A DNA stretch of 37,816 nucleotides from a virus (taxonomy: Duplodnaviria; Heunggongvirae; Uroviricota; Caudoviricetes), in IMG/VR virus record IMGVR_UViG_2563366922_000008, positions 1 to 37,816 of that record. One strand, given 5' to 3'. Shown piece by piece: positions 118 through 19,846 of the stretch. Positions within the stretch are counted from its first letter, which is position 1. Every line of letters starts with the position of its first letter. The position numbers were made by a program, and so were the translations under genes. The notes below the pieces were generated by a model. That model had not been told where the DNA came from. It saw nothing but the letters and a program-made list of their open reading frames with translations, and did not search any database.

Positions 118-317
118 GTTGGAGTCATTACCGACAATGCGCAGGAATCACGAAACTCGTTCAGATCAGGCTTATTACCATCGACTTTAACGGCAGTATT
201 TGGCTTAAAATAAAAACCAGCGCCCCACCCGTTACCGCGCACCTCAATAATGGCAATGCTGTTAATTCCTTTAACCTCTCCACCGTCAAATTTGAAAGCA
301 CCGCTTTCTGTTTTCAT
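111..317 (-). CDS. Hypothetical 68-aa protein downstream of tailspike
   Basis: [20 protein letters not shown]...; ATG at 317 sits 9 nt after GGAGA and 1 nt after the stop of the upstream 61-aa gene (translational coupling); longer alternative starts at 326/344/356 exist. Confidence 0.4.
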
Positions 318-318
318 T

Positions 319-504
319 TTAATCATTCTCCGTAACAGGTTCATTGTGAGCAGCATTTAGTACTCGCTGGAGTGGCTGGTCATTTTCGCGATCTAATTCA
401 GCCTGTAATGCATTCATTGAAGAATTAAAAGCAGGAACTTCATGACCGCTAAGATTTACGCGAAGCATAAACTGCATGATATTTTGAATAGTTTGCTTAT
501 CCAT
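319..504 (-). CDS. Hypothetical 61-aa protein immediately downstream of tailspike
   Basis: ORF MDKQTIQNIMQFMLRVNLSGHEVP...; ATG at 504 preceded by AGGA; starts 12 nt after tailspike stop. Confidence 0.4.
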   Translation of the reverse strand: MDKQTIQNIMQFMLRVNLSGHEVPAFNSSMNALQAELDRENDQPLQRVLNAAHNEPVTEND

Positions 505-516
505 TTTATTGTCCTG

Positions 517-1953
517 TTAAGTTAAACCAATTAATCCATGCCCGGTTGAAGCATGTAAGTCCTGAATTAATGCTGCAACTACCTTTGCTAAATCTTCGTG
601 AGTTATTGTTCCAGAGTTAAATGCTGCTCGGGATACGGTGCCGGTTGGCGATCCCCATCCCGTCCTCCTCTCTGAAATAACTTGATTGCCATTAAGTCGT
701 ATTCTTAAGTTGTTGAAGTTAGCCCAGTTCTCAGCCCTGTTGAAACTCAAATGTGTTGTATTTGCCGGGCCCGTTCCTACCGTAATTCGTTGATTGTCGC
801 CCATCAAAATTGCGCAGTTGTTTGAAAATCTAGCTTCAGAAAATGAAATTCCACTCCTAAAATAATTTGTTCTAAATCTAATGCCGTTTGCAGCTCCAGA
901 TGATAGAGATCCCTCAAGTCTGATGTATTCGCCATTACCTACCTCGGTTAGTTCCTCTGTTGGAGTGGAAATAGAATTACCTCTAAACAACATTCCTGTC
1001 CAGATATAACCATTTGGAGCTTCACTCCCTCTTCCGATGGTAATCATCTGTGTTACTGGATTGCTTTTATCCTGAGTTACACATACCAACCCTCTTACAG
1101 ATCCTTGCAGTGCATTCTCCATCCATCCTTTATCGGGACCTCGATTATTCAGATTAAATTCATGTGCAATAGTGCTAATCGCTCCATTCTGCACTGCATC
1201 TCCTAATACTGCACCATATGACCACCCCCCCCATGTTTCGGCTTGCGGATTTCTTGATTCTCCACGCATGTGGTGACCAATTGAATGCCCATTCCCTCCC
1301 TCATGCTTAGCAACACTTGTAGTTGTGCATGTATATGCACTTCCTGACACCTTGCGCAAAGAGTTATAAATTACCCCCTGATCCCATCGTTTGATGCCGT
1401 CATCCCTAGTTGCAGAACTAATTTTTTCCAGCCAAATAATGGGATCTGGAATTGGTGTTTCTGGTATGGAGAATCTCTGTCGTGTAGCATTTTTATATAT
1501 GATAGTTTCATTGTTATAAATATTGTCACCAGCTGCATCTGAACCAGTCCATCCTGAGCCAGCATAAAAATTCTTAAGTCCATCACCAGACTGTCCAGTC
1601 AAAACTACTCTTAACTGATCCGGGTCATACTTCAGCACATTTGGGAATTTGAACTGCTGTGCACCATACGCATCATAAACAGCCATAGAATGGCCTTGCT
1701 CAGTTACGAATTTGGCAATCTGTCCGTTATATACAGGGTAACCAGCGGCGTTAATGATGATTGGTTGCGAAACGGGAACATGAGAGCCGTCTTCGTTCTC
1801 TACATAAACCTGAATCTGGTTTTCAGGATTTACTGGGTCAGTGTCAATTTTACCGATATAAATCTTTCCATTAGCTACGGCTTTAAAAGAACGAGCCATA
1901 GTGAAGAGTTGCGAAGGCATGCTGACTACAACATTGGCTGTAATGTCTGTCAT
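517..1953 (-). CDS. Tailspike / tail fiber protein with P22 gp9-type N-terminal head-binding domain and a divergent receptor-binding region
   Basis: 478-aa ORF; N-terminus [11 protein letters not shown]...[33 protein letters not shown]...NVLKYDPDQ matches the P22 tailspike head-binding domain as I recall it; rest unlike the P22 endorhamnosidase; GGAG 8 nt upstream of ATG. Confidence 0.8.
1225..1232 (-). repeat. Homopolymeric G8 tract (C8 on plus strand) inside tailspike coding sequence
   Basis: Plus strand ...accaCCCCCCCCatg...; encodes W-G-G-W (tgg ggg ggg tgg) in the tailspike frame. Confidence 0.9.
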
Positions 1954-2021
1954 TTAATTTGCTCCAGATACAAGGAATCGCCGCAGCATTGCCACAGTGA
2001 TGCATTATTAATCAAACAAAG

Positions 2022-2036
2022 AGACCACTGTGGTCT
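2022..2036. promoter_or_regulatory. 15-bp palindrome AGACCACTGTGGTCT in mnt-tailspike intergenic region; candidate Mnt operator
   Basis: Perfect 7-bp inverted arms around a central T, about 65 bp upstream of mnt; resembles the symmetric P22 mnt operator in style (recalled, not verified). Confidence 0.35.
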
Positions 2037-2099
2037 TATTGAGGATGCAACCAGCAGATAATAAGATGCCGATCCACTCACAAAAGCGAGGCATCAAGA

Positions 2100-2351
2100 A
2101 TGGGAAGAGATGACCCGCAATTTAATCTGCGGCTACCTTACGAATTAAAGGAAAAACTAAAACAGCGAGCCAAATCCAATGGCCGCTCTCTTAATTCAGA
2201 ATTAGTTCAGATAGTTACTGATGCTGTATCAAAGCCATCCAAAATTTCAGGCTATCGAGACGATGCGGAACGCATCGCTGATGAGCAGTCCGAACTTGTT
2301 AAGAAGATGGTGTTTGATACGCTGAAGGATTTGTACAAAAAACCCACCTGA
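2100..2351 (+). CDS. mnt: Mnt repressor (ribbon-helix-helix, P22 immI-type)
   Basis: 83-aa ORF MGRDDPQFNLRLPYELKEKLKQRAKSNGRSLNSELVQIVTDAVSKPS...ADEQSELVKKMVFDTLKDLYKK, matching P22 Mnt in length and sequence as recalled. Confidence 0.85.
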   Translation: MGRDDPQFNLRLPYELKEKLKQRAKSNGRSLNSELVQIVTDAVSKPSKISGYRDDAERIADEQSELVKKMVFDTLKDLYKKPT

Positions 2352-2367: not shown

Positions 2368-2450
2368 GCATTTACCTGGGCCATATTGACTACTTATAAA
2401 ATGAGATCAATATTTAATCGCCCAATAACGGGTGTATGTTGAGGTATATC

Positions 2451-2630
2451 ATGGCGAAAAAACCAGGTGAAAACACAGGAAAAAACGGCGGAATATACCA
2501 AGAAGTTGGCCCGCGCGGCGGTAAGAAAGACAATTTTGCCACCGTCAAGGACAACGAAAGGCTTCCACCAACAACAAAGCCAGGTCATGGCTGGGTATTA
2601 GATAAGCGAACTCCAGACAGCAAAAAGTAA
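2451..2630 (+). CDS. Hypothetical small basic Gly/Lys-rich protein (59 aa)
   Basis: ATG at 2451 with GAGGT 5 nt upstream; MAKKPGENTGKNGGIYQEVGPRGGKKDNFATVKDNERLPPTTKPGHGWVLDKRTPDSKK; followed by a terminator hairpin; table ORF starts at an upstream TTG. Confidence 0.45.
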   Translation: MAKKPGENTGKNGGIYQEVGPRGGKKDNFATVKDNERLPPTTKPGHGWVLDKRTPDSKK

Positions 2631-2636
2631 TAATCA

Positions 2637-2658
2637 AGCCGGATCACTCCGGCTTTTT
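2637..2658 (+). terminator. Rho-independent terminator (aagccgga-tcact-ccggctt + TTTTT) between convergent genes
   Basis: Perfect 7-bp stem with T5 run on plus strand directly after the 2451-2630 ORF; stop codon of the minus-strand gene lies inside the hairpin. Confidence 0.5.
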
Positions 2659-3009
2659 GATATGTCGCTCGCAGAACTCAACAAGCCTGCTCATTAAGTA
2701 GCAGTAAGTCTCGTTGGCTCTTCCTGGTTCAACATCAACACCGACCCTTGAGCAGATATCGAATGCCATGTGAGCGCACTCATGGGCAATAGTAGATAGT
2801 TTGCCATTGAACACGCCTATCACATGCAAAACACCATTCTCGCTACTCATTGTATGAGACGCTCCGTTGGCGTCCGAGTCATGCACGTCAACGCCAAGTT
2901 TTTGATGCAGGCGTTGCCATTCTGGAAAGTCTCTACAAAACACAATTGTACCGCTCTCAAAGAGCGGTACTAGCATCTTTGGTACGTTTCCAATGTTAAC
3001 TTTTTTCAT
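2644..3009 (-). CDS. Hypothetical 121-aa protein with HExxH motif (possible small zinc-metallopeptidase-like protein)
   Basis: ORF MKKVNIGNVPKMLVPLFESG...STIAHECAHMAFDICSRVG...; ATG at 3009 with AGGA 5 nt upstream; HECAH is a candidate zincin motif; no family assigned. Confidence 0.5.
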   Translation of the reverse strand: MKKVNIGNVPKMLVPLFESGTIVFCRDFPEWQRLHQKLGVDVHDSDANGASHTMSSENGVLHVIGVFNGKLSTIAHECAHMAFDICSRVGVDVEPGRANETYCYLMSRLVEFCERHIKKPE

Positions 3010-3043
3010 GGTATCCTGCGCAAAACTAAGGAGAGTTAATTAT

Positions 3044-3529
3044 ATGAAAAAATCACTGTTAATTATCCCGCTTCTGCTGGCTGGGTGCGCAAAAGTAAGC
3101 GACTATCAGGCAAGTTGCGAGCAACGCTATCCAAAGCTTAGCGATATGGCTAATTGCCTTGATGCCAGCTTGAAGAACGACTCTCGCATGGCATCAGCAC
3201 CAACACCTAAGCTGTATGTCCTTGCTGCGAAGATGCTCGGGCAAGGTGTCGATGAAGGCAAGATAAGTGACACACAGGCAAGACTTGAACTTCAGAATCT
3301 TTATGTTCAATTACAAAGCCAAGAACAAGCCCAACAAATAGCGCAAAGCCAAGCATTCCAGCAGGCTTTATTGAATTATCAGGCTGTAAACACAATGCAA
3401 GCGATCGAGCAAAAAGCGCGCCAGCCTGTTATAACTCAACCTTACCCAACACGCGTTGACACATATACAAACTGCAATTCAGGATTTGGAAACACGGTAA
3501 CATGCAACAGTAGCAGTAATATCAGGTAG
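3044..3529 (+). CDS. Putative lipoprotein (161 aa) with Gln-rich helical region, in the P22 sieA slot
   Basis: ATG at 3044 with AAGGAGAG upstream; N-terminus MKKSLLIIPLLLAGCAK has signal peptide plus lipobox LAGC; Q-rich middle (QLQSQEQAQQIAQSQAFQQALLNYQ); Cys-containing C-terminus. Confidence 0.6.
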   Translation: MKKSLLIIPLLLAGCAKVSDYQASCEQRYPKLSDMANCLDASLKNDSRMASAPTPKLYVLAAKMLGQGVDEGKISDTQARLELQNLYVQLQSQEQAQQIAQSQAFQQALLNYQAVNTMQAIEQKARQPVITQPYPTRVDTYTNCNSGFGNTVTCNSSSNIR

Positions 3530-3543
3530 TTATATCTTATCTT

Positions 3544-5391
3544 TTATTGCTGTTCTGCTGTAATTTGGCTTGAAAGTATAGGGCGTATCGCATTTGCAGC
3601 ATTATTTAGCGCTCTTTCATAGGCTGGCGTTCCTGCTTTGGTGTTTGCCAAACGTAAGAGAGCATTCCTTGCTGCTTTGGACTCATACAAGCGCATCATT
3701 GCACCGAAACCAGCCTCAAGCCCCATTGATACGCCAAGAGTCGCAGTTGCGCCAATCGTCCTTATCCTGTTGGCTTGCGATTGCCCCGTCTGAGTTACTA
3801 CATTTGCGGTGTCTGACCTTGCTGTTTGCTGTAGAACTTCATGAAGAGCATCAAGCTCTTTCATGTGCTTTCCAGAAAAAATAGTGTTGTAAATTTCACC
3901 GCCTGACTGAGATTTCAGCTTATTAACTTCAGTGATGAACTTGGCTGGAGAGTCACCGGATTTTTCCGCTATTTTGCTGACGTAAGCTGCACGCATAGCA
4001 TCTTTCCCTTTATCATCCAATGCGCTCCAGATTCGTTTCACGTCAGATGGTTTTCTGCTTAATACAACGGTATTTATAAGTTCAGGACTGGCTTCACTGC
4101 TTGCCTTGTTGAGCTTGTTAGCAATGTTTTTATTAAGCACCTTATTATAAACGTTTGCATAATCGGAATTTGCTTTAAGGTATTTTGCTGCGTCTGATGC
4201 ACCGAGGTTTTTAGCAACTGCGTTACGAAGGTCTTTTGACATTGCATTCTCTACCATATTGGTAGCTGCTTTTGCCTGGTTGGGGAAGACCATAGCATCT
4301 CCCTGAACATTAGATCTAAATGCTGTTCTGTGCTGACGCAAGAGATCAAACGTAACATCCAAATCAGTTGCAGGGTTTGCTAATTCTTCACGTAGGTTAC
4401 GCAAGGATGTAAGCAGGCTTTGATTGGCAGATGTCCCAAGCCGTTCCTGTCTTGCGATCGCTGTATTCAGAGCATTCATGGTATTTGTGGTATCAACTGA
4501 GGCATTACCCATTTTATTGGTGACGTCATTGATAACAGCGCCATCGGCATCCTTCCGCCCCCTTAACGTGGTGGTCAGAGATTTCACCACATCATCAGGG
4601 TTGTACTCACCAAAACGGTCAAAATAATTACTTACCAGCTTACTACGCGTTGCATATTGCTCAGCTCGCTTTGAGCCTGTCCCGAGCAAAGCCCCCTCGG
4701 CATCCTGAGTAAGGCCACGAGTGAAAGCATTTTTCGGTGGGATGACATCAGATGTCATTGGCGTCACACCCATTGATTCTGAGGTGGCAATTTTTTTCGC
4801 TACTTCTGGCGCGATATCGCCTTTTATAGCCGTTATTCCACGCCCTATTCCCTTTGCTGCTGCGGAAAGAACACCCTGAGCGGCAAGGTTAACTCCGGCA
4901 TTTATGGCTGCATTTTGCGCGAAATCACCTTTCTGGTTTGCGGCTTCTGCCAGTGATCCAATAGCCATGCTTCCTGCCGTTCCAACTCCTGGAACTAAAT
5001 ACCCGCCAATTGTTTCTCCAGCTTGCGCATAAGGGTCTGTCGGTCGATCGACAGGGCGATAAACATCATCCAAAACCTTGGGGCCACCAAGCCCCTGGCT
5101 GATTGCATTAATCAGACTTGCGCCACCCTGCAATACGTCAAATGGTATGTTTACCAGACCACGACCAGCCTGTTCTGCAATTTGCCCTGCACTTTGAGCA
5201 CCTGTGAGCCAATCGCCAGCTTGTTGCATCAATGATGGTTCTTCACGTGCTGGTTCATTATTGGCCTGATTAACTGTTTGTTGCTGAACAGCCTGACCAG
5301 CAAAATACTCATCAATGGCGGTGCCAATATCTTCCGTGCTCGTACCATCAGGGAAGGTAAATGTCTTACCGTTTGCAGTTACTTTCATCAT
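3544..5391 (-). CDS. Ejection (injection) protein, P22 gp16-like
   Basis: 615-aa [36 protein letters not shown]...; position and size as P22 gene 16; start ATG overlaps gp20 stop. Confidence 0.85.
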
Positions 5392-13341: not shown

Positions 13342-15507
13342 TTATTGAGGTGTCTCGGCTACTCCGCCGGAGGGGATTTGAACTTGACGCATAAGATTCG
13401 CGAAATCCATGCGTTGTGAATGAGTCTGGTCTGCATCTTTAAGAAGCAGCTCAGCGTTAGCACGAGCATCTTTGCTGCGCTGTTGCTGGAATTGACCTAC
13501 GAGCTTGAGGTACTCACGCAGTTCTGCCTGCTTGTCTAGGTCCATATTGTTGAAGATTTCCGCAATCTTCGCGGCGTTGAGTTGGTTTTGGGCTTCAACC
13601 TTGGCGGCTTCAACCTGAATCTGCGCCTGTTGGTTCTCTGCCTTGAGCAATTCAGCCTGACCTTGCAGAAGGATACCCTGCGCCTGAATTTGCTCTGCTG
13701 ATGGCTGCTGCGGCTGCTGTTGAGCCTGCTGTACCATCTCCATCTCTTCAGGTGTTTCTGGTTTCTTCAGCCCCATCATCACCAGTTGCTTGTTCGCGTA
13801 CTCTCGCATCATCTCGACGCCTTTACCGTCAAGCAGCGTGAAGTATTGCAGCATCAGCATCTGGAACTCTGGAGTACCTTGCGGAACCTTGGTGAGTAAC
13901 TCCTGAATCTCTGCGCGGTTCTGTTCCTTCATGCTCTGGAAGGATGGCCCAACGTCCGTATAGCACTCATAGCGACCACGAATGTCGTTGAGTGTGACCA
14001 CATTGCCGGACTGGTAATCGACAACTTGTGCATAGAGTTGAACGTCTTTCTCGCTTCCATCTTCAAGTGTCAGCGTTACATGACGAGGAACGTCATAAAT
14101 ATCGTTGACCATTGAGGCATAAATCTCGCCATCACGTCGCATTGCGGTAGCCAGGTTATCCTGAAACACGTATGTCTCAAGGTCTGCCCGCATGTTCAGT
14201 TGATTGACGGTATCGAAAGCTACCTGACCATTTGCCGCCTGCGCATCCACGCCAAGACTAGCCACCTCTTTCACTGCGTTGGTGGCAGCCTCAAGCATGT
14301 AAGCGTTGGCTTGCGGCACTTCAGGGTTTTCCATGTAGGAGATTGGACCAATCGGCAGGTCGTTACCGTTTTCATCGGTCCTGTTCTGCAGATAGTACGG
14401 ATAGTCATCATTTCCACCGTACATGTATTCGTAGCCTTCGATTTGCTCAGGGAAGAAGGTCGGTTTCTTCTTCGGTGAACGAGCAACGATATCGGCGTTG
14501 AACGACATGATCATGTTACGAAGGCGCTGACCGTCTTTCGTCAGCCTTACCACTCCTTCGTAGCACTCCTTGTCACCAGCGAATGACCATTCGCCATACA
14601 CTGGAACGATTGGAATATGCTCTCCGGCTATCTTCTCGCGGTCTTTCAGTATCTGCGTGCAGGTGATGATCGACTTATACACACGCCGACGCTTGACCTT
14701 ACGCTCTGCTACCTTAATGAATCCACGATTAGCCAGGTCGTCGATGACGTCTTTGATATCCTGCTGGTAATAGCTGACCGGCTCACCTGTCAGCGGGTCG
14801 CGGTAGATGAAGACCTTCTCTTTCTTCTCTTCGACCTCGTAATACTCAGCGACGTAGACGACATCATTCGATACCCACGGAAACAGCCATGTATCGTTCG
14901 GATTCTGGAAAGATGGCAAGGTGTCCGGATCAATACCGTAATCCTCTGCGAACTCTTTCCAGCCATTGCGCGACAAGGCGTTAATCACCGTGCAGTGCTT
15001 AGCGTCGCTCTTATCCATCTGCTTGCTGTTGGCGTCCCATATGACGTGTGAGCAGGCTTCATGAATTGGCAGGCGTCTGATTACCTGATTGTTGCTTGTT
15101 GGGTCGTTGTCTTCGTACTGTGTGACCAGACGCCATGCACCAACGCCGGACTCTATCTGCTCACGAACGCCAACGTTAACGGCAATCTTTGCCGTGTTAT
15201 GGCGCATATCAGTACGATACATCCCCATCAACACATCGGCTGCATCAGGACTAGCGCCGTCTTTGGGTCGGAAGAGAACGTCGATAGGGTTCCGGCGCAT
15301 CTCTGCGACCAGTTTCCTGACCACCGGGCGAACAACATCGAATTGTCCGCGATATTGCAGGGTGGTGTAGTTTGATAGCCAGTCATCCCATTGCGACACT
15401 CGGCTAAAATACAGGTCATTTGTCGCCTCGGTTCTGGCTTCATCGCTCGCCATCCAGTCTGCGTCAAACTTACACAGAATGGAATTGAGTCTGTTTTCGT
15501 CGGCCAT
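13342..15507 (-). CDS. Portal protein, P22 gp1-like
   Basis: 721-aa ORF ...[73 protein letters not shown]...; size and order as P22 gene 1. Confidence 0.9.
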
Positions 15508-18986: not shown

Positions 18987-19505
18987 TCACTTTGGCAGTC
19001 CGGGGATCGATATTTGCGCCTGCTGCTCAAGCCTTTTGATTCTTGCTATGAGTTGCGGTTTTTTGATCCTGCCCCAGCGGTTCAGCAAGCGTCCTGACAT
19101 ACTGGCAACATCCTTTTCCTTCATGAACTCCAGCATTAACTCGTTGTGCTCTCTTTGGTATGAGTGAGCCATCTCCATCAGCCTGTCACGCATCCAATTA
19201 AATGCTTTGATAAACGCCTCTTTGATGGCGGCAGCTTTTTTGCCGGTAAACGACATGATGATGTACATCGCACCGTCTTTGGAAATTTCATATTCAACAT
19301 ACTGATTACCCTTGTGTTCATAGGTAACCCGCGAAAAGTTGCTGGTTAGAAATTCATCCGAACATTCTAGCTTTTCGATTTTCTGAATGATGTGGTGATG
19401 CTGCTTGTCGAAGTAAGCTGCTACCTTGCGGGAGGTTGTGATCACGCGATCACCAGAAACAACCACCATGTCCCGGAAATCGAGATTAGCCAATTGATGA
19501 TTCAT
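18987..19505 (-). CDS. Rha-family phage regulatory protein
   Basis: ATG at 19505 gives MNHQLANLDFRDMVVVSGDRVITTSRKVAAYFDKQHHHIIQKIEKLE...YEHKGNQYVEYEISKDGAMYIIMSFTGKKAAAIKEAFIKAFNWM, typical of the Rha (Phage_pRha) family; table start 19541 is GTG. Confidence 0.7.
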   Translation of the reverse strand: MNHQLANLDFRDMVVVSGDRVITTSRKVAAYFDKQHHHIIQKIEKLECSDEFLTSNFSRVTYEHKGNQYVEYEISKDGAMYIIMSFTGKKAAAIKEAFIKAFNWMRDRLMEMAHSYQREHNELMLEFMKEKDVASMSGRLLNRWGRIKKPQLIARIKRLEQQAQISIPGLPK

Positions 19506-19846
19506 AGCGTCTTTACCTTTTAGAAAGTGAGCCTGTCTCACAGAAAAGCCGCCCGAGAGAGGTCGCCACCTATAACGGCATTTCTCAGGCTCGCTTACTG
19601 AAAGGCTCTCGTTAATATGCGCGTGAGATGCGCTGTGAAATTCAGATATAAAAAGCCCCGCGAATGCGAGGCTAAATCCTGGTGTTTGTGATGACTGGCT
19701 CTTATCTCAACGCAGCCCCTTACCGCGCGCCAGATGCTCAATATCAAGCATCAGCAATGAGATGTTTAATCTGGATTCACTCCAGAAGTGATCACCACCC
19801 TGTCTACAGAGCCAAATGTGAAGGATGATGAGTAAAATTATCGCTA

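Follow-up and report, generated by a model that had tools for sequence, protein, structure and literature searches.

hkcC of P22-like phages: a small HExxH protein as a probable gluzincin-type metallopeptidase outside the curated families

In its minimal form, the core of a gluzincin metallopeptidase is a small β sheet backed by a helix, together with an active-site helix and a "glutamate helix". Thermolysin (MEROPS family M4; ~316 amino acids (aa)) has in addition a C-terminal domain, which carries His231/Tyr157; the minigluzincins (proabylysin and projannalysin) and other gluzincin cores, such as 3e11, come to ~100 residues. Two other groups of HExxH proteases enter into what follows: the SprT-like/Spartan/Wss1 proteins (PF10263), which are small and common in phages and in which (SprT/Spartan) the third metal ligand is His, and the ImmA/IrrE proteins, which are HExxH + Glu enzymes. 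The subject here is a small gene, hkcC, in a stretch of viral DNA of 37,816 nucleotides (nt) (IMG/VR record IMGVR_UViG_2563366922_000008, positions 1 to 37,816; the whole of this stretch is referred to as the window) that represents a P22-like (Lederbergvirus-type) phage or prophage, the late genes of which are encoded on the minus strand. The best explanation of hkcC, to which a probability of roughly 0.6 is given, is that it is an accessory gene of P22-like phages and that its product is a zinc metallopeptidase of the gluzincin type, soluble and consisting of a single domain, with an accessory role in the cytoplasm.

hkcC (2644..3009, minus strand, ATG start) encodes a protein of 121 aa (13.6 kDa, pI 6.4) without a signal peptide. 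The segment KLSTIAHECAHMAFDICS of this protein contains the sequence HECAH at residues 76-80 (window 2770..2784, minus strand; codons CAT GAG TGC GCT CAC): the open reading frame (ORF) and its HExxH motif are as the initial annotation described them. HExxH alone is weak evidence because shuffles of the protein's composition produce it in 2.6% of cases (and HExxH-19-E in 0.15%). Of 1.84 billion cluster representatives, 546 match a profile built from 18 relatives at E ≤ 1e-3, and 151 do so at E ≤ 1e-10; almost all of these are stand-alone proteins of 100-140 aa. Among 137 aligned relatives H76 is kept in every one, and E77, H80 and E100 are kept in 136 each; Y104, four residues beyond E100, is kept in 132. 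A curated alignment of 112 members, with a mean column identity of 23%, has H76, E77, H80 and E100 as its sole invariant columns (G49, G90, Y104 and L105 are >90% conserved). Conservation of these four residues is far beyond chance. H76 and H80, on one helix, and E100, which lies 20 residues past H80 at the start of the next helix (codon at 2710..2712, minus strand), are the proposed zinc ligands; E77 is the proposed catalytic base, and would activate water as the general base.

An AlphaFold2 model of HkcC, computed from an 18-sequence alignment, is confident (mean predicted local distance difference test score (pLDDT) 89.1, predicted template modeling score (pTM) 0.83). Its elements are strands 11-13 and 21-25, helix 28-37, strands 49-56 and 59-66, helix 71-88 and helix 100-116, that is, b-b-a-b-b-a(HExxH)-a(E100), with HECAH in helix 71-88 and E100 as the first residue of helix 100-116. 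This is the predicted layout of a minimal gluzincin: β sheet, then HExxH helix, then E100 helix. The initial annotation had pointed to structure prediction as the place to look for a zincin fold and a third metal ligand, and the model supplies candidates for both; the "zincin-type signature" that it had read from the motif is upheld by family-wide conservation, by E100 and by the zincin-like predicted fold. Gluzincins (clan MA(E)) are recognized by a family-wide conserved HExxH on a helix, which HkcC has, and by a Glu that follows at a distance of at least ~20 residues in the next helix, for which E100 qualifies at the level of sequence and secondary structure. As in other zincins, the strand that immediately precedes the HExxH helix (59-66) would take up the substrate chain edge-on.

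Where does such a protein belong? Foldseek, searching the PDB with the model, found no match at E ≤ 1e-3 (the best-ranked entries are unrelated GTPases). In the BFVD library of viral models, 26 phage proteins match at E ≤ 1e-3, most of them unnamed; the few that have names are called "SprT-like" or "Metalloprotease", and entries called "IrrE protein" appear only at E ~0.03. Weak as they are, these structure searches lean in the direction of the gluzincin layout. Comparison of HkcC with all PDB sequences by phmmer gives weak matches, the best of them to Bacillus neutral protease (E = 0.09), in an alignment that puts HECAH on HELTH and the "ANET" of HkcC on "LNEA/INEA", the segment containing E166 of thermolysin; the thermolysin-like matches have E = 0.09-0.66 across 48-68 residues. 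The 112-member profile, searched against PDB sequences, has as its best matches motif-level ones to myroilysin and BMP1 (E 0.12-0.4). Pfam, NCBIfam and PADLOC scans of HkcC produced no fitting model, only spurious lantibiotic matches (PADLOC at E ≤ 1 has no match for hkcC or for the products of three neighbors discussed below: orf59a, the lipoprotein gene and mnt). HkcC does match PHROG 1365, a large phage-specific family labelled "unknown function" (E = 1.7e-39, residues 1-121), and so does each of the 112 members that were tested; PHROG 1365 has neither a Pfam model nor a solved structure. The "unassigned family" of the initial annotation is thus an apt description: judged by sequence and model, the HkcC family is a zincin by its defining features, and one that lies outside every curated family.

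Thermolysin-type gluzincins share with HkcC an HExxH on a helix, a Glu 20 residues past the second His (the H146-E166 spacing of thermolysin is the H80-E100 spacing of HkcC), an N-E context that aligns with NExxSD, and a β sheet followed by two helices. They differ in length (~316 against 121 aa), HkcC being without the entire C-terminal domain, and at the fourth position beyond the Glu, which is Tyr in HkcC and Asp in thermolysin. Membership in the M4 family was considered and rejected: HkcC, with its 121 aa and its E values of 0.09-0.66, shows neither the two-domain architecture of ~300 aa nor significant similarity. The minigluzincins and the other ~100-residue cores have no detectable sequence relation to HkcC, which, unlike the minigluzincins, is phage-borne and has no recognizable pro-segment or self-inhibiting C-terminal tail. 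(The literature on minigluzincins and on phage zinc metalloproteases directed against defense systems yielded nothing relevant to HkcC.) HkcC would accordingly count as a new, unclassified variant among gluzincin metallopeptidases, with the proviso that hkcC and PHROG 1365 are both already catalogued.

Might HkcC be a zincin-fold protein that is not an enzyme, an inhibitor or adaptor whose site serves a binding partner or a structural metal? HkcC is very small, it has no extra substrate-binding domain, it shows no significant similarity to any characterized protease, and clade-specific cysteines (C25, C78, C86 and C103) could form another site. The alternative is nevertheless regarded as quite unlikely. 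The catalytic-base residue E77 is kept in 136 of 137 relatives alongside the three ligands, which counts against a purely structural metal site because such a site would not require E77; and C25, C78 and C86, conserved in the close hkcC clade, are not conserved across the family. The caution originally attached to the motif, that by itself it proves no catalysis, is still valid, the activity of HkcC being a predicted one.

A second alternative is suggested by the Pfam SprT-like model, which 17 of the 112 members match weakly (HkcC itself is unmatched). Such a HkcC would be a SprT/Spartan-like DNA-dependent protease that clears proteins covalently trapped on phage DNA, a role with which the SprT-like names of some BFVD structural neighbors and the location of Autographiviridae members among replication genes would agree. 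The matches that were looked at are confined to 18-22 residues around HExxH (profile positions 62-84 of 108) and reach 13-15 bits, against a Pfam cut-off of 25.6; two Pfam scans of hand-picked distant members gave, respectively, no SprT-like match and a motif-only one. The conserved third ligand of the HkcC family is Glu at +20 instead of His, and HkcC is acidic to neutral and has no basic or zinc-ribbon DNA-binding region. A SprT/Spartan-like function is, on this evidence, highly improbable.

The gene is shared by the model phages P22 and HK620, among others. Searching phage genomes by tblastn finds the ORF at 98-99% aa identity in HK620, SE1 (gp64), ST160 and P22; HkcC of HK620 (NP_112089) is 99% identical to the window protein. 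So is its P22 equivalent, at 13861..14226 of the P22 third-party annotation record BK000583, where it has no annotated coding sequence: across this interval the record lists just the sieA promoter and the mnt terminator. One could take that record at its word and hold that there is no gene at 2644..3009, the stretch merely carrying a sieA-type promoter and the mnt terminator. That proposition retains practically no probability. Eighty-three copies of hkcC comprise 39 nucleotide alleles, which differ from the window copy almost entirely by synonymous changes (one example has 10 synonymous codons and 1 non-synonymous one), and since allele differences are so distributed, hkcC is a coding sequence under purifying selection. 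Hundreds of diverged homologues retain the four invariant residues, the fold prediction is confident, and the ORF is annotated in HK620 and other records. The homologue, invariant-residue and allele data refute the non-gene proposition: hkcC is a real gene. A literature search on hkcC and HK620 found no activity assigned to it, and the SieA paper and the P22 deletion paper are silent on it.

In the window, hkcC is placed between the gene-16-type injection protein gene (3544..5391, minus strand) and the tailspike gene (517..1953, minus strand), and shares the orientation of both. It is divergent from a lipoprotein gene (3044..3529, plus strand; start codons 34 bp apart) and convergent with orf59a (2451..2630, plus strand; this is the P22 name, the HK620 name being "HkcD"), which specifies a basic (pI 9.9) YjzC-family protein of 59 aa. 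Both arrangements had been noted initially, and the ORF coordinates bear them out. Beyond orf59a lies mnt (2100..2351, plus strand; Pfam Arc and Repressor_Mnt); arc and ant are absent from the window, whereas P22 has a complete arc-ant system. HK620, P22, SE1 and ST160 agree with the window in where hkcC lies relative to gene 16 and the tailspike gene, and in the convergent orf59a with a common terminator; the divergent slot, which holds the lipoprotein gene in the window, is occupied by hkcB in HK620 and by sieA in P22. A sample of 80 IMG/VR loci with near-identical hkcC generalizes the picture: in 80 of 80 the gene has gene 16 on one side and the tailspike gene on the other and is oriented like the late operon, with sieA, hkcB, a lipoprotein gene or nothing in the divergent upstream slot and, on the downstream side, orf59a followed by mnt with or without arc-ant, or by remnants.

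(A side note on mnt: a palindrome, CTCAATAAGACCACAGTGGTCTC, at ~2018..2040 of the window (core 2022..2036), between mnt and the tailspike gene, resembles the P22 operator Omnt, CTCAATAGGTCCACGGTGGACCT, with changed half-sites. The mnt gene of the window, without arc and ant, looks like an orphan with an operator of altered specificity that faces the tailspike gene.)

Beyond this neighborhood the family spreads widely. A paralogue clade at 38-40% identity includes epsilon34 gp70, Orf129 of ST64T and Orf129 of L; its genes have no orf59a beside them, and are bordered by the lysis genes on one side and by the small terminase or Dec gene on the other. Some phages have both hkcC and a paralogue copy; the window has no second copy between its lysis and terminase genes. 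(A 184-aa ORF lies there, at 18987..19541, minus strand; its homologue in a Mixta prophage (47% identical; locus L096, 5217..5753) is close upstream of an epsilon34-gp70-type zincin paralogue, with one small ORF between.) The mEp021-like phages likewise carry a member between lysis and terminase genes. Among virulent phages, the N4-like phCDa has a member as the first gene of an operon that diverges from the terminase genes, the N4-like PW7 has one upstream of RNA polymerase 1 subunit A, Kurepalu-1 has one between DNA ligase and RNA polymerase, and the Drulisvirus P1010 has one between helicase and DNA polymerase: the N4-like and Autographiviridae members reside in early or DNA-metabolism regions. 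In a metagenomic setting, member P0038 lies directly downstream of, and co-oriented with, a 200-aa Sequestin-domain gene (147..749 in locus L126, 116..718 in L127) of the anti-Thoeris sponge family, with integrase-like and terminase genes following. A morphogenetic or virion protease had also been considered; it was dropped in view of the relatives in early regions of virulent phages.

The initial annotation had suggested an antirepressor-type protease, and the location of hkcC in the immI/"ant moron" region, together with mnt and in a window that has no arc/ant, makes the thought a natural one: an ImmA/IrrE-type enzyme, with the same HExxH-plus-Glu signature, would cleave C2 or Mnt and so substitute for the missing Ant. 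The suggestion is not sustained, and is now rated as very unlikely. ImmA/IrrE/CapP proteins (Peptidase_M78, COG2856) differ from the HkcC family in being longer and in having a helix-turn-helix (HTH) partner gene in their operon. PF06114 (Peptidase_M78) matches none of the 112 members; hkcC has no adjacent operonic HTH partner comparable to that of the ImmR/ImmA systems, mnt being separated from it by orf59a and being dispensable. In P22 itself, as in many prophages, hkcC coexists with complete arc-ant, and it also occurs where there is no mnt; its paralogues lie between lysis and terminase genes. A general role as an antirepressor protease is further disfavored because members occur in virulent N4-like and T7-like phages, which have no repressor.

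When is hkcC expressed? A Shine-Dalgarno-like AGGA (3014..3017, minus strand) is located 4 nt upstream of the ATG (3010..3017 reads AGGATACC on the minus strand). Between 1900 and 3700 the hkcC strand showed no promoter-like site. P22 gene 9 is expressed by read-through of the hkcC region. Since hkcC has the orientation of the late operon (gene 16 to tailspike) and no promoter-like site was found, it is most likely expressed from the late transcript; HkcC would then be a product of lytic growth, translated from that transcript in its antiterminated form. An internal hairpin, GTACCGCTCTTTGAGAGCGGTAC (2948..2970, minus strand), with a perfect 10-bp stem, occupies codons 14-21 and is terminator-like on the sense strand; 9-10 of its 10 pairs are kept in 39 of 39 alleles. 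It might restrict hkcC to antiterminated late transcription or, alternatively, stop antisense transcripts.

The opposite strand has its own signals. Between hkcC and orf59a there is a hairpin at 2636..2655 with an 8-bp stem (-15.4 kcal/mol, z = -3.6); its T-run is clean on the plus strand only, and the stop codon of hkcC falls within its loop. It is the predicted terminator of the orf59a/mnt transcripts. The equivalent site is annotated as the mnt terminator in P22 and as the bidirectional terminator tORF59A in HK620, in keeping with the shared terminator hairpin of the initial annotation. A sigma-70 promoter-like site with a consensus match (TTGACT-17-AATATT; 2386..2414, plus strand) lies upstream of orf59a and downstream of the mnt terminator. 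At the other end of hkcC, codons 1-10 contain the promoter of the divergent cargo gene (2979..3009, plus strand), a 31-mer, TTGGTACGTTTCCAATGTTAACTTTTTTCAT, that is identical to the annotated P_sieA of P22; because this 31-mer falls inside the reading frame, the 5' end of hkcC doubles as promoter of the envelope-type cargo upstream. In the window the 31-mer faces the lipoprotein gene, not sieA. Across prophages, the occupant of the slot that is driven by a P_sieA-type promoter is always of the envelope type: SieA, HkcB, a lipoprotein, a signal-peptide, membrane or Rap1a-like protein. The P_sieA-type 31-mer looks like a promoter-equipped docking site for exclusion-type cargo.

The cargo of that slot varies. 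In Morganella and other prophages it is a homologue of the lipoprotein, or a signal-peptide, membrane or Rap1a-like protein; the lipoprotein gene is found in a minority of loci only, a homologue filling the same slot in Morganella prophage L116. The lipoprotein itself (161 aa, lipobox LLAGC) belongs to PHROG 6067 ("unknown function") and has no Pfam match; in the sieA position, it is plausibly a candidate superinfection-exclusion factor. Because the slot varies, the lipoprotein stands outside any fixed hkcC unit. The co-occurrence of all three genes that had been envisaged across prophages therefore holds in part: hkcC and orf59a are co-inherited, the lipoprotein is variable, and a fixed three-gene unit, in a slot that may hold sieA, hkcB, the lipoprotein gene, genes for other envelope proteins or nothing, is not what is found. 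(A secreted protease with a lipoprotein inhibitor, on the model of the Listeria metzincin/TIMP-like pair, was also considered, and dropped: HkcC has no signal peptide, and the lipoprotein is in a minority of loci.)

The partnership of hkcC with orf59a is of a different order. orf59a is convergent to hkcC in 69 of 80 P22-like loci; in the remaining 11, which belong to a single lineage, another gene takes its place precisely at the hairpin. The convergent pair is also found in Morganella prophages and in siphovirus-type prophages of Rosenbergiella, Klebsiella oxytoca, Xenorhabdus and a Pasteurellaceae bacterium, as well as in metagenome contigs. In the siphovirus-type setting the stop codons are 13-30 nt apart and the pair lies between the tail tube/chaperone genes and the tape measure gene. 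The pair persists in contigs whose HkcC is merely 43% identical, and in every pair examined hkcC runs along the structural operon and orf59a against it. Phage-collection records at ≥95% identity number 52 for hkcC and 52 for orf59a. The partner is missing next to homologue P0013, and a different gene is opposite hkcC in locus L112. In the hkcC clade, the two genes have been shown to travel as a convergent two-gene cassette with one common hairpin terminator, and to be co-inherited; podovirus and siphovirus prophages carry the cassette at sites known as hot-spots for morons.

The product of orf59a is, by its sequence relations, a YjzC-family protein: it scores 19.4 bits against the YjzC Pfam model PF14168 (cut-off 25), phmmer connects it with PF14168-bearing proteins and with UniRef "YjzC family protein" entries, and a Clostridium phage homologue is annotated as YjzC family by NCBI. 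It has the invariant signature GxYQEVGPRGG...LPPT, and AlphaFold2 models it as a folded, three-stranded, all-beta mini-domain (pLDDT 86). YjzC-like genes also live apart from hkcC. One belongs to a prophage region of the Salmonella bongori type, another shares an island with HTH/Peptidase_M78, DUF3892 and Fic genes, and a Clostridium phage has one as a lone antisense moron in its head module. Two observations bear on the company that the cassette keeps. In the contigs whose hkcC-orf59a pair is the most diverged, a gene for a 212-aa PF18894 "PhageMetallopep" protein comes next (1330..1968 in L105, 1229..1867 in L106); because that gene adjoins the pair, the YjzC gene is there flanked by two different predicted metallopeptidases. 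In Escherichia phage Gally, one unrelated 139-aa gene (L001 3369..3788) stands in the cassette's place between mnt and the lipoprotein-slot gene; the whole cassette is thus exchangeable.

Does co-inheritance signify joint function? Functional coupling of hkcC and orf59a, including a toxin/immunity relation of the kind that was first suggested for the small HExxH protein, is a possibility. In its specific form, Orf59a, expressed in the prophage, would be the effector (for instance an exclusion or toxic factor), and HkcC, expressed late, would remove, process or neutralize it during the phage's own lytic growth. The constancy of the convergent orientation over different phage backbones and down to 43% HkcC identity, the equal counts of phage records, and a promoter-like site that belongs to orf59a itself, downstream of the lysogen-expressed mnt, all speak for such an arrangement. 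It is considered unlikely all the same. The link is not obligatory (hkcC faces another gene in 11 of 80 loci and in L112); YjzC-like genes do without hkcC in other prophages, islands and Firmicutes phages, and most of the wider zincin family does without orf59a; the model of Orf59a is that of a folded all-beta mini-domain and not of a loose peptide; and adjacent morons that share a terminator can hitch-hike together.

The favored explanation, a cytoplasmic zinc metallopeptidase, leads to a provisional scheme. In the cytoplasm, HkcC would cleave a specific protein, or a small number of them, belonging to the host or to a resident prophage (the least certain step of the scheme), and cleavage would serve an accessory function in host takeover or counter-defense and not as a morphogenetic or repressor protease. 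Candidate targets would be a host immunity protein or host factor and, in the hkcC clade, the products of neighboring prophage-expressed morons. Several points weigh against the scheme or against its premise. The genome literature catalogues hkcC as a gene of unknown function (PMC2629481). No significant sequence match to any solved protease was found (best E 0.09-0.12), PADLOC and NCBIfam give nothing for HkcC, and its proposed His/His/Glu metal site is read at the level of sequence and secondary structure. The terminator-like hairpin comes ~40 nt past the hkcC start codon, late expression is read from orientation, and the notion of counter-defense draws on gene position and a single Sequestin neighbor.

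A bolder generalization can be phrased, and is put forward here as a doubtful one: HkcC-type mini-zincins may be widespread, unrecognized phage proteases of counter-defense or host takeover, each cutting a specific host immunity protein or host factor, and made early in virulent N4-like and T7-like phages and late in temperate ones. In the hkcC clade the target could even be the phage's own YjzC-type or exclusion-type moron product, cleavage preventing self-inhibition.

P22 and HK620 are model phages, and the immI/"ant moron" region has been studied for decades, yet hkcC is unannotated in the P22 reference record. Reading hkcC as the gene of a probable zinc protease provides a concrete hypothesis that can be tested by cheap mutations in a system with excellent genetics, and that extends to >500 sequence clusters of "hypothetical" phage proteins, temperate and virulent. 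Its reach is family-wide; it has offered no surprising mechanism so far. If a substrate were found, this would be a new protease family in phage-host conflict; otherwise, it would be an ordinary improvement in annotation.

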